64,000 nucleotides of DNA from Picochlorum sp. SENEW3 (Eukaryota): assembly GCA_034226945.1 (NCBI GenBank), contig CP120463.1:186001-250000 (forward strand), in the 5' to 3' direction. The position numbers and the translations under genes were made by a program. The notes beneath the pieces are model-generated. The model was not told the DNA's origin and made no database searches. It saw only the letters and a program-made list of their open reading frames with translations. Of this stretch, positions 10,831-13,699 are shown one piece after another (position 1 is the first letter of the stretch; each line of letters begins with the position of its first letter).

Positions 10831-11706
10831 TTATGATTCCGCCTCTTTCAGCTGACTTGACGCATATTTATTGGATTCAAATTTGGATGTGGTGAATTCA
10901 GATGTTGTTGGGAATTCTTGAACAAGAGTATGTAATGTCTGAATATAGACACTGCCCTCGTCCATTTTCAAATCAAGAACATGCCCTCCTTTGCTATAAT
11001 CTGCCGTCATGAAATGCAAATGATACCCTGGCACTGACAGGGCATGTCCAAGGAAACCAGGCGACCAGAAGCCGACAAGCCAGCCCTCTTGATCATTGTG
11101 AAACTCCATGATTGCCTGCTCCCGGGTGACTTCCACCAATGGCCTGTTGTGTTCTTGTTTTCGCACAGCTCTAACCTTGACATAGCTGAAAGATCCTTTA
11201 ATCTTAATTGCAGCAAATAAGTTCTTAGATGACAGCCATTGATCCAAAGCACTGTGAAGATCAGACCAACCAACATCATGAATGGTATGGTGGACACTAT
11301 GCTCATCTGAAAATGTGCAAACCATCATAAATGGAGAGGTGCTCTCAGGAGGAATAATGTGACATTCGCCCTTCTCAGTTTGCTGATACGCCACTCCATC
11401 GATCACAACAACTTCACCATTGAGCATACTCAACGTGCCCAATCCAAAGTCTCCATGCTGCAATACCTCACCTACTGTTATTGTACCTGAAAGCAGGCCT
11501 TCCACCAAGTCTAATATTGGAGCAGACACAAACAATGTCTGCTCTGATGAAGGCTTATCACCCTCCTGAGGTATATGCACTGATGATGGGCGCAGAACTC
11601 TCTCAATGCAAGTGATTGCGTACTCCTCAGGTGATATTCCTGCACTGTGCGACGCAAGCACAAGCGGTCGGTGTAGAGTCTCTGGAAGGTCGAGCGTCAA
11701 TTTCAT
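10831..11706 (-). CDS. alsD: Alpha-acetolactate decarboxylase (AlsD/BudA family) with an N-terminal ribbon-helix-helix-like extension; intronless
   Basis: HGDFGLGT..LNGE, PF, GYHLHF..GGHVLD metal-binding motifs; about 50 extra N-terminal residues. Confidence 0.92.
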   Translation of the reverse strand: MKLTLDLPETLHRPLVLASHSAGISPEEYAITCIERVLRPSSVHIPQEGDKPSSEQTLFVSAPILDLVEGLLSGTITVGEVLQHGDFGLGTLSMLNGEVVVIDGVAYQQTEKGECHIIPPESTSPFMMVCTFSDEHSVHHTIHDVGWSDLHSALDQWLSSKNLFAAIKIKGSFSYVKVRAVRKQEHNRPLVEVTREQAIMEFHNDQEGWLVGFWSPGFLGHALSVPGYHLHFMTADYSKGGHVLDLKMDEGSVYIQTLHTLVQEFPTTSEFTTSKFESNKYASSQLKEAES

Positions 11707-12001
11707 CGTTCAAACCCTTACCAGATTATCGTCCAATTATTTCACTTTGGCTTCTCGTATGGTGTTTTTAAAGAAAATACCCATTTGTAAAGATTCTAGG
11801 AGTCTGTAGTCCGAGAATTAGGTATTCTGTAGTGCTTTTATTGCTTCGGTCGTTCCAGCGTCTTGAGCGAGTTCTTTCTTGATTGGATATTTGATTCATT
11901 CTTCTTGGATTCCCAATCCCTCGGAAATGAACCCTGCAAAAAAAATAAAATTATTACACGTACTACTATTGTCTTTATTCAAAGGCTGCTGACGAATATC
12001 C

Positions 12002-13699
12002 ATGGGTTTGACTGGAGCAGAAGTGCTTGTGCAAAATCTCCTGTCTCAAGGAGTGGAGAGAGTATTCACTCTGCCAGGTGCAAAGATTGATCGGGTTCTT
12101 GAAGCGATTCGGGCTCTGGGTGGGAAGATTGAATTGATTTTGTGCCGGAATGAGCAGTCTGCTGCGTTCATGGCGGCAGGTCATGGCAGGAGGACTGGCT
12201 CTGCTGGGGTTGTCCTTGTGACCAGTGGGCCTGGTGTAGCCAACCTGACAACGAGTTTAATCACAGCAACGTGTGAAGGCGATGCAGTTGTCGCAATTGG
12301 TGGAGCAGTGCCTTTGTCTCAGAGACTGAAAAGGACACATCAGAGCATGGACAATGTTGGTATTCTGAGGCCTGTTTGCAAGTATGCAGTTGAGATAGAT
12401 TCCCCTCTGGCAATCGGTGAAGTCATTGGAAACGCTTTCAGAAATGCAGAGGAAGGTCGACCTGGAGCTGCTTTTGTTTCGATTCCAATGGATGTCATGG
12501 TCGATGAATGTCCAGAAGTGCATATCATGACTCCAGTAAAACCCCCGTCCATGGGACCAGGAAACAGAGAGTCTCTTGATGCAGCAGCAGCAGCATTAAA
12601 CAAGGCCAAGCAGCCTCTCATTTTGTCTGGTGGATTGGCATCGACTCTGGATGCAACAATTGCTCTCAGAGCGCTTTTATCAATCCATCCTATACCAGTG
12701 GTGTCAACTTTCCAAGGTACTGGAACAGTCGCAAAAGAGATGGCCTATTTGTATTGTGGAAGGGTGGGCATCTGCAGAAATCAACCTGGGGACAACCTGT
12801 TGGAATCAGCAGATTGCATCTTGGCCATTGGTTACGACGTCATCGAATATGATGCCACATTGTGGAACAATTCAAAAGAAAAAAAGACCATCATACACCT
12901 TGATGCAATTCCATACGATGTGGATAATAACTATTGCCCAGACATTGAAGTTGTTGGCTCCATTGCCGAGTCCTTGAGGGAACTTACATCCAGGCTTACA
13001 CTTTCGGCATCCTTGTCTCCGCACGAGAACGAGCATTTGATCGAGGCCAAAAAGCAACGTGATGAATTTTTGGAAGGAATCGAAGTAAAACATGTTGATG
13101 GTCTTGTGCATCCGCTTGACATTGTATCAGGACTGCAAAAAGTGTCGGACGAGTTTGATGACGTGACATATTTTGTGGACATGGGATCTTTCCATATCTG
13201 GATCGCTCGCTATTTGGTTGTCCATCGCCCGAGACAATTGGTCAATACAAATGGTCAACAGACTCTCGGTGTCGCGTTACCGTGGGCAATGTCTGCCGCC
13301 TTTGATGCCAAAAAGAATGGCACTGACATGACTGAGAAGCTCATTTCAGTCAGTGGTGACGGAGGCTTTCTTTTCTCTGCTGCTGAACTCGATACTGCCG
13401 TGCGATATGATTTAAATTTTGTTCATATCATCTTCGACGACATGTGCTACAACATGGTCAAGGTACAGCAAGAAAAGAAGTACCATGGCAAGTCTTGTGC
13501 TGTGAATCTTGGTGCTGTTGACTTTGTGAAGTTTGCAGAGTCCATGGGAGCGACAGGCTTTAAAGTTACAGATGCGAAAGATGTGTATCCGACCATAATG
13601 AAGGCGATTGGTATCAAAGGACCAGTCGTGATTCAGATCATGGTTGATTATTCAGACAATGGCACTCTTTTTGAAGAAACCCACGACTCCTTCCATTGA
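12002..13699 (+). CDS. alsS: Catabolic (AlsS/BudB-type) acetolactate synthase, ThDP-dependent; intronless, no transit peptide
   Basis: PGAKID, RNEQSAAFMA, THQSMDN, DMGSFHIW, NGQQTLGVALPWA, SVSGDGGFLFS, VDYSDN; these resemble bacterial catabolic ALS rather than plastid AHAS. Confidence 0.9.
   Translation: MGLTGAEVLVQNLLSQGVERVFTLPGAKIDRVLEAIRALGGKIELILCRNEQSAAFMAAGHGRRTGSAGVVLVTSGPGVANLTTSLITATCEGDAVVAIGGAVPLSQRLKRTHQSMDNVGILRPVCKYAVEIDSPLAIGEVIGNAFRNAEEGRPGAAFVSIPMDVMVDECPEVHIMTPVKPPSMGPGNRESLDAAAAALNKAKQPLILSGGLASTLDATIALRALLSIHPIPVVSTFQGTGTVAKEMAYLYCGRVGICRNQPGDNLLESADCILAIGYDVIEYDATLWNNSKEKKTIIHLDAIPYDVDNNYCPDIEVVGSIAESLRELTSRLTLSASLSPHENEHLIEAKKQRDEFLEGIEVKHVDGLVHPLDIVSGLQKVSDEFDDVTYFVDMGSFHIWIARYLVVHRPRQLVNTNGQQTLGVALPWAMSAAFDAKKNGTDMTEKLISVSGDGGFLFSAAELDTAVRYDLNFVHIIFDDMCYNMVKVQQEKKYHGKSCAVNLGAVDFVKFAESMGATGFKVTDAKDVYPTIMKAIGIKGPVVIQIMVDYSDNGTLFEETHDSFH

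Follow-up and report, generated by a model that had tools for sequence, protein, structure and literature searches.

We describe an acetolactate decarboxylase (ALDC) gene in a 64,000 nt stretch of the genome of Picochlorum sp. SENEW3 (contig CP120463.1, positions 186,001 to 250,000 of the forward strand). This whole stretch is called the window here, and all coordinates refer to it. The gene, an open reading frame (ORF) at 10831-11706 on the minus strand, encodes a protein of 291 aa with an N-terminal extension that we identify with high confidence as a ribbon-helix-helix (RHH) module. The fusion of this module to ALDC is widespread in bacteria and was very likely inherited by the alga, and is not a eukaryotic invention. 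Judged from the sequences, the module appears to be kept under purifying selection in the alga, and binding of DNA by it is doubtful. On balance we lean towards the view that it is retained as a dimerisation or stabilising element and is no longer a repressor. The protein is divided as follows:

11593-11706, minus strand: RHH module, residues 1-38, with a beta-strand at about 2-7, a Pro8 cap, helix A at 9-22, the turn A-G-I-S at 22-25 and helix B at 26-38 (AlphaFold, structural matches, hhalign, predicted homodimer)
11536-11592, minus strand: variable linker, residues 39-57 (predicted local distance difference test, pLDDT, <50 at 43-48; 30.8% mean pairwise identity)
10831-11535, minus strand: ALDC catalytic domain, residues 58-291 plus stop codon (PF03306, 4bt2 by sequence and by fold, invariant columns)

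The Extension Is Part of an Active-Looking Enzyme

The gene product is an active-looking ALDC by its sequence features. The Pfam family PF03306 covers residues 61-277 (E 5.5e-66, profile positions 4-218 of 219), and the PDB entry 4bt2 matches the protein by sequence (E 8.1e-39). The same entry matches the AlphaFold model of the full-length protein (pLDDT 91.6) by fold, with E 3.7e-28, a TM score of 0.93 and a root mean square deviation of 1.4 A over 237 columns, and the match to the family is full-length by both profile and fold. E98, R179, H229, H231 and H242, comprising the His triad, the Glu and the Arg, are invariant columns in an alignment of 120 homologues. From the structure papers on the B. 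brevis enzyme we take E98 and R179 to be the catalytic Glu and Arg, and the three His to be the zinc-binding residues.

An earlier sequence-only reading of this DNA had proposed that an RHH-like module is fused to the ALDC. The N-terminus of the protein (MKLTLDLPETLHRPLVLASHSAGISPEEYAITCIERVL) is identical to the sequence quoted there; the 38 quoted residues correspond to 11593-11706, and the interval assigned to the module, 11587-11706, to residues 1-40. That reading would have failed if translation started downstream of the extension. An in-frame stop is located 2 codons 5′ of the ATG, and the next in-frame Met in the translation is residue 94, within the ALDC domain, so that no complete enzyme can be translated without the extension. 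In the RNA library X11 (oligo-dT, Logan contigs) the locus was covered at low depth, at 11042-11278 and 11357-11507 in the ALDC gene and at 12135-12400 in the neighbouring acetolactate synthase (ALS) gene, with the RHH module uncovered. X11 is the sole true RNA library among the Logan runs; X1 and X5 appear to be DNA libraries, and a single contig of X2 spans the entire locus.

Profile Evidence for the RHH Module

With the 49 N-terminal residues of the window protein alone, the best Pfam match was a non-significant one to FitA-like_RHH (E 0.14). The significance of the RHH assignment comes from homologues, profiles and structure prediction. On many bacterial ALDCs the N-terminus carries a module of about 45 residues with the consensus x-L-x-L-x-L-P-x-x-L-W-x-A-L-x-x-R-x-x-x-T-G-E-x-x-x-H-I-V-x-x-A-L. 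Among the 120 best homologues, Pfam found RHH_1 in 13 (best E 3.2e-5), FitA-like_RHH in 4, RHH_5 in 3 and RHH_4 in 2. The precomputed Pfam annotation of one homologue, P0075, pairs PF01402 with PF03306, and databases thus already hold the RHH-ALDC architecture implicitly.

A hidden Markov model (HMM) built from 46 bacterial modules gave 28.6, 17.6 and 14.6 bits for Micractinium-type N-termini and 9.0 bits for the window. The best of 300 shuffles of the window's own sequence reached 7.3 bits, and the best of all 3900 shuffles 11.6 bits. When a profile of the eight Picochlorum-like modules was aligned by hhalign to a profile of 49 short modules lacking ALDC, a set that may include a few N-terminal ALDC fragments (e.g., P0307), the match had a probability of 97.5% (E 8.4e-12, 41 columns); the reversed control gave 4% (E 0.01). 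A profile of 35 module sequences, searched against 1.84 billion representatives, retrieved 1155 proteins at E<=1e-3. Pfam analysis of 146 top matches (the best 149 minus three long repeat proteins) yielded RHH_1 54 times, ALDC 50, FitA-like 25, RHH_5 14, PSK_trans_fac 13, HicB 11 and RHH_3 10. Significant matches to RHH families are therefore obtained through the algal profile and the module profile, and not through the window sequence alone. Against the PDB, the single-stretch matches of the 35-sequence profile were VapB30 (7.9e-5), the RHH part of MatP (1.2e-3) and CopG (0.021, positions 3-37 on 4-38). The top matches in this search were TALE and designed repeat proteins, which we judged to be artefacts, as they are summed from many tiny repeats. 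The turn A-G-I-S at residues 22-25 of the window protein fits the G-x-S/T/N turn found in RHH proteins at the N-terminus of helix B.

Predicted Fold and Homodimer

AlphaFold predicted an extended stretch at residues 1-8, a helix at 9-22, a turn and a second helix at 26-38, both in the full-length model and in the model of the module alone (pLDDT 84-96 for these elements; 87 for the module alone). Residues 43-48 of the linker stayed below 50. AlphaFold and VIA-align agree on a beta-alpha-alpha unit of about 45 residues. In Foldseek, all 35 matches listed for the 47-residue model were RHH proteins or RHH-type designs (TMq 0.6-0.8), among them VapB26, MatP, CopG, PutA, AmrZ, Arc and FitA. With VIA-align, 74 of 132 chains were found at Z>=5, and the 50 matches listed were all RHH proteins (AtaR, PutA, AmrZ, Arc, CopG, NikR) at Z 4.6-6.8, values that, being below 8, are middling for that tool.

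Modelling of the N-terminus as a dimer had been suggested together with the RHH proposal. For residues 1-47 the homodimer prediction gave a score of 0.37, against 0.02 for the best of three controls. Of 30 proteins whose solved structures are same-chain pairs, 21 reached the mark set for a homodimer, and of 23 solved as single chains none did; for eukaryotic proteins the numbers were 17 of 29 and 0 of 30. Contact agreement between runs was at least 82%, and the pLDDT of the partner at least 73. The contacts are of the RHH type, with an antiparallel ribbon (4:4, 5:3, 5:5) and helix B packed on helix B (33:33, 30:34), so that the prediction is an intertwined homodimer with a two-stranded antiparallel ribbon. 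Many RHH dimers have been solved, so that the prediction shows likeness, and passing the mark may reflect memory of the fold. Together with the middling Z values and the lack of any Foldseek match at E<=0.001 for the 47-residue module model, this tells against the assignment.

The N-terminus might also not be an RHH domain, and instead be a chance amphipathic extension, a targeting peptide or the product of a mis-called start. The weak scores of the window sequence on its own, in Pfam and with the bacterial-module HMM, would fit such a view. The position of the upstream stop and of the next Met speaks against a mis-called start, and the acidic sequence is unlike a transit peptide. The module is also conserved in a sister species, its HMM score exceeds the best of its own 300 shuffles, and profile, fold and dimer evidence all indicate RHH. 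This alternative is largely refuted and very improbable, and the RHH proposal of the sequence-only reading was borne out by AlphaFold, structural matches, profiles and the predicted dimer.

The Fusion Is Widespread in Bacteria

To follow the distribution of the module we scored 119 proteins (the best 120 homologues plus three cluster members minus four fragments). The module was present in 47 bacterial proteins, 16 were of the algal type, and 56 had no module and carried signal peptides or other extensions instead. The RHH module heads 47 of the 116 scorable close ALDC homologues. In prokaryotic genome loci it was found in 23 of 80, mostly in delta-proteobacterial metagenome-assembled genomes (MAGs), and also in Gloeomargarita, another cyanobacterium and two alphaproteobacteria (cyanobacterial RHH-ALDCs are P0067, L031 and L035); in metagenome loci it was present in 10 of 80. 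A search for bacterial RHH-ALDC fusions had been proposed with the RHH assignment, and such fusions evidently exist in numbers. The names attached to the closest ALDC homologues include Micractinium at 41-42% identity, and a metagenome scan for relatives returned solely bacterial sequences at <=43% identity.

A quick maximum-likelihood tree was calculated from the catalytic domain only (118 rows, P0003 left out). The algal rows formed one clade of 18 (SH-aLRT 99), 15 of them with the module and three without (P0011-P0013). A bacterial clade of 32 adjoins the algal clade (support 91), and 18 of its members carry the module. The RHH label required 4 changes on the tree, compared to a mean of 37.1 after shuffling. 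The tree is the product of a quick search, which counts against reading too much from it, and its root was not inferred, so that the donor is narrowed and not named. The view that the module is a relic identifying the bacterial donor clade fits the spread of the module and the position of the algal clade beside an RHH-bearing bacterial clade, and fell short where the donor itself was to be named.

Several N-termini in this data set deserve separate mention. Of the module-less P0011, P0012 and P0013, two have AT-rich-looking short N-termini; the three may be truncated gene models, sequences of other eukaryotes or real losses. A gammaproteobacterial subgroup (P0029, P0033, P0034, P0036, P0040, P0043, P0045, P0051, P0071) begins with M-x-L-(P/S), leaving only 2-3 residues of the RHH strand. 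These proteins may form a variant without the strand, or their starts may have been mis-called; the N-terminus of P0035 is longer. Other bacterial ALDCs (P0050, P0056, P0059, P0060, P0100, and P0070, P0082, P0093 and others) have N-terminal extensions of another kind, conserved and about 35-40 residues long, starting with MLIEEKFVNFLHVL... or MAIDDVFIKAFQAHR...GDLFH, which could be a second, unexplained module. Weak matches to Pfam DUF6129 occurred in 7 of the 120 homologues (best E 0.0019; the members carrying them were not specified). In P0068, a protein of 483 aa, ALDC is joined to a D-Ala-D-Ala dipeptidase domain (Peptidase_M15, E 2.3e-48).

Conservation of the Module in Algae

The module is conserved to an intermediate degree. 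Among eight Picochlorum-like proteins (28 pairs) the mean pairwise identity of the module (57.6%) lay between those of the linker (30.8%) and the enzyme (69.7%). In the sister protein P0121, 85% identical overall, the residues kept number 29 of 38 in the module, 16 of 19 in the linker and 202 of 234 in the enzyme, and conservation of the extension in a sister species, on which the sequence-only reading depended, was thereby found. A hydrophobic heptad-like pattern and Pro8 are kept from the Picochlorum-like algae to Micractinium, and in the Picochlorum-like clade conservation extends to K2, T4 and D6 on the outward face of the strand. Most Picochlorum-like modules have a 2-residue deletion in helix A. 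No frameshift or truncation was seen in the 15 module-bearing sequences of the algal clade.

Run X2 represents a 98%-identical strain. Among its 12 listed variants in the 876-nt ORF, 8 were synonymous and 4 nonsynonymous; two of them fall in residues 1-47, both synonymous and none nonsynonymous. The 295-nt intergenic region upstream of the gene contains 11 listed variants. These counts comprise the listed variants, and 9 further ones exist beyond the listing. In run X1 three of the listed module variants were synonymous; a fourth, discussed below, was not.

DNA-Binding Hallmarks Are Largely Lost in the Algal Modules

The algal and bacterial modules differ in features that are expected for DNA binding. 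The turn glycine is kept in 42 of 44 bacterial modules, in 3 of 8 Picochlorum-like ones and in 1 of 5 other algal ones. At residues 16-26 the mean number of Lys and Arg was 2.27 in bacteria, 0.62 in Picochlorum-like and 0.60 in other algal sequences, and the net charge of residues 1-38 was +0.32, −2.88 and −1.8, respectively. A repeat search over 11650-12060, which includes the intergenic region, revealed short imperfect direct and inverted repeats only, and no palindrome or tandem operator-like repeat. Inspection by eye of eight delta-proteobacterial upstream regions of RHH-ALDC genes revealed no palindrome. No targeting or nuclear-localisation sequence was seen by eye in the algal ALDC (no predictor was run). 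Binding of DNA by the module looks doubtful in the alga, because its charge, the lost turn Gly and the lack of an operator-like repeat lean against it. A eukaryotic trigger enzyme, the bolder part of the sequence-only reading, is for the same reasons not supported so far.

A side observation concerns the bacterial upstream regions. A CCGATAAACTC element, which is not a palindrome, is conserved about 10-20 nt upstream of the ALDC start in L049, L053 and L056 (with a variant in L062); its proximity to the start codon hints that the mRNA may be leaderless.

The Divergent ALS Gene and the Gene Neighbourhood

Two further features of the window belong to the neighbourhood of the ALDC gene:

11707-12001, no strand assigned: divergent intergenic region between ALDC and ALS, 295 nt (ORF coordinates; repeat search; variant listing)
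12002-13699, plus strand: catabolic-type acetolactate synthase (AlsS-like), 565 aa, divergent (Pfam TPP_enzyme N, M and C domains; AlsS homologues)

The distance of 295 nt to the divergent neighbour is as the sequence-only reading had given it. The ALS is thiamine pyrophosphate-dependent by its domains (Pfam PF02776, PF00205, PF02775). Homologues named AlsS are about 50% identical to it, algal homologues 72-98%; the closest carry the source labels Picre1 (98% identity, covering 45% of the query), Picsp_1 (72%) and Chlorella sorokiniana (50%), the first two of which are presumably Picochlorum portal codes. The Chlorella sorokiniana homologue, P0174, is 955 aa long and has an extra PF02214 domain (potassium-channel tetramerisation, BTB-type). 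This represents either another fusion of an oligomerisation domain in the pathway or a merger of gene models.

ALDC and ALS (10831-13699) form a divergent, intron-less pair, and the genes flanking it are eukaryotic (LUC7, a SMUBP-2-type helicase, zf-HIT, Atg3/10-like). The alignment of the ALS to bacterial proteins begins at its first residues (q1-q6), and neither protein has an evident targeting extension (no predictor was run). Because a divergent intron-less pair without evident targeting peptides lies among eukaryotic genes, these features suggest a horizontally acquired, presumably cytosolic acetoin pathway. ALS and ALDC proteins of relatives come from contigs of matching size (5621, 15563 and 20103 nt), which hints at conserved adjacency of the two genes.

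The bacterial RHH-ALDC loci showed no conserved neighbourhood partner, and their neighbours were mostly unrelated. Of 80 genome loci, 5 had an ALS-like gene at a distance of up to 4 kb, two of them (L066 and L069) belonging to the 23 that carry the RHH module; of 80 metagenome loci, 2 had one at up to 3.5 kb. In L066 the RHH-ALDC gene is flanked by ALS and malic enzyme genes. Two loci from delta-proteobacterial MAGs (L019:212-4822 and L049:95-4822) have AcrB-type and HlyD-type resistance-nodulation-division (RND) efflux genes upstream on the same strand as RHH-ALDC; the start of ALDC and the stop of HlyD overlap in L019.

Possible Roles of the Module in the Alga

The fold, homology, distribution and conservation of the module, as described above, are shown by the analysis; its function in dimerisation and its lost capacity to bind DNA are what we infer. 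The RHH-ALDC fusion would be old and bacterial, the module being common to a large share of bacterial ALDCs, and the fused gene would have passed by horizontal transfer to a lineage of trebouxiophyte green algae that includes the Picochlorum-like organism and Micractinium. In the algal protein an RHH domain of about 40 residues would be tethered to the enzyme by a flexible linker of about 20 residues. Two N-terminal strands would pair as an antiparallel ribbon and the B helices would pack, and two enzyme domains would be held together in this way. The module would most likely be an obligate dimerisation or stabilising element, kept by purifying selection, and probably no longer a transcription factor.

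A number of points weigh against this explanation. Nearly all characterised RHH domains bind DNA, to our knowledge, and a role other than DNA binding would be unusual. Short RHH proteins that stand alone can likewise have acidic residues in the strand, and D6 is for this reason no evidence of lost binding; the conservation of K2, T4 and D6 could reflect a retained ligand surface. In run X1 a G>A change at position 11684 converts the conserved helix-capping Pro8 to Leu, at a low depth of 4.5. The enzyme has no strict need of the module either, since at least 14 bacterial ALDCs of the sister clade and three rows of the algal clade do without it.

If the module served nothing in the alga, it might have been inherited together with the gene and persist as a neutral relic, since its deletion would remove the start codon and the 5′ end. 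The decay of the bacterial hallmark residues is compatible with this, as are the faster evolution of the module relative to the enzyme, the deletion in helix A of most Picochlorum-like sequences and the module-less P0011-P0013. The module is, however, far better conserved than the adjacent linker, the heptad-like pattern and Pro8 are kept as far as Micractinium, AlphaFold models the module confidently, and all 15 module-bearing algal-clade sequences are intact. We therefore regard a relic without function as unlikely. The conserved outward surface formed by K2, T4 and D6 needs a reason, and ALS and ALDC, as we read the pathway, act sequentially on an unstable intermediate; the module might thus have been re-used for docking to ALS or another partner, or for RNA binding. 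Nothing points to a specific partner, and the bacterial RHH-ALDC genes are rarely located beside ALS, which leaves such re-use a rather small chance.

The remaining alternative is a working trigger enzyme, in which a nuclear RHH-ALDC dimer or tetramer would bind the 295-nt ALS/ALDC promoter and couple transcription to acetolactate or acetoin, as PutA does with proline. The N-terminal RHH, linker and enzyme are arranged as in PutA, whose RHH matches at Z 6.5-6.6, the divergent genes share a short intergenic region, and the module is conserved together with its outward-facing strand residues. Against it, 5 of 8 Picochlorum-like modules and 4 of the 5 from other algae have no turn Gly, basic residues are depleted around the turn and the net charge is negative, unlike in bacteria. 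The intergenic region offers nothing beyond short imperfect matches, its density of listed variants in run X2 is higher than that of the ORF, and no nuclear-localisation signal was seen by eye. We consider this role improbable in the alga. The wider proposal is also quite improbable: RHH-ALDC would be a large unrecognised family of one-component trigger enzymes, and the algal RHH would reach the nucleus and repress the divergent promoter of the horizontally acquired ALS/ALDC pair. If the trigger-enzyme role were true, a prokaryotic RHH repressor would act as a transcription factor on a eukaryotic chromosome. For the bacterial relatives PutA-like autoregulatory DNA binding is plausible, and our analysis would give it about even odds.

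Significance and Comparison with Known Systems

In the literature outside subscription journals no paper was found in which ALDC is linked to RHH, CopG or trigger enzymes, and none on ALDC in Picochlorum, Chlorella or green algae; the papers that did match, including those on diatoms, looked incidental, and PMC9666466 proved irrelevant. We know of few RHH-enzyme fusions with a known mechanism, PutA being the textbook case. The RHH-ALDCs present the same RHH-enzyme architecture on a different enzyme, and they are widespread in bacteria. If the bacterial proteins bind DNA, acetoin metabolism would gain a new class of self-regulating enzymes, which would matter for 2,3-butanediol engineering and for the annotation of alsD and budA. 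The algal copy can be regarded as a natural experiment, in which a prokaryotic DNA-binding fold was carried into a eukaryote and long kept, with loss of its DNA-contact hallmarks. It would show how such domains can persist for structure and not for regulation, and it marks a cytosolic-looking, putatively horizontally acquired ALS/ALDC pair in trebouxiophyte algae.

The catalytic domain, with the invariant Glu, Arg and three His, is common to the window ALDC and to AlsD/BudA (PDB 4bt2, 5xne, 6inb, 5yho, 6j92, 1xv2). The solved ALDCs have no RHH domain and no chain over the module; the best alignments start at query residue 37-62. NikR and the RHH antitoxins (CopG, VapB, FitA, AtaR) share the beta-alpha-alpha fold, provide the best Pfam and PDB profile matches, and resemble the window protein in its predicted dimer. 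In NikR the RHH is joined to a ligand-binding domain, as it is to a second domain in the window protein. These proteins are dedicated regulators or antitoxins and not enzymes. The window protein has neither a toxin partner nor a metal-sensor domain.

The closest parallel in architecture is PutA of E. coli and Salmonella (RHH structures PDB 2rbf, 2gpe, 2ay0), which also consists of an N-terminal RHH of about 45 residues, a linker and a metabolic enzyme. Its RHH matches the window module structurally over 44-46 residues at Z 6.2-6.6. For PutA, both binding to the operator and a redox switch have been established by experiment. The trigger-enzyme hallmark of a DNA-binding-type domain fused to a catalytic domain is found in the window protein as architecture only, and the comparison with PutA made in the sequence-only reading is apt to the same extent. 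The differences from PutA are an unrelated partner enzyme, a eukaryotic host and a module that, in the algae, lacks the glycine and the basic character seen in the bacterial modules. The bacterial RHH-ALDCs (cyanobacterial, delta-, gamma- and alphaproteobacterial; P0067, P0063, P0073, L019, L031, L066) agree with the window protein in architecture, module length and position. Their modules have retained a T-G-E-S/T turn preceded by 2-4 basic residues, features that the algal modules have mostly lost.

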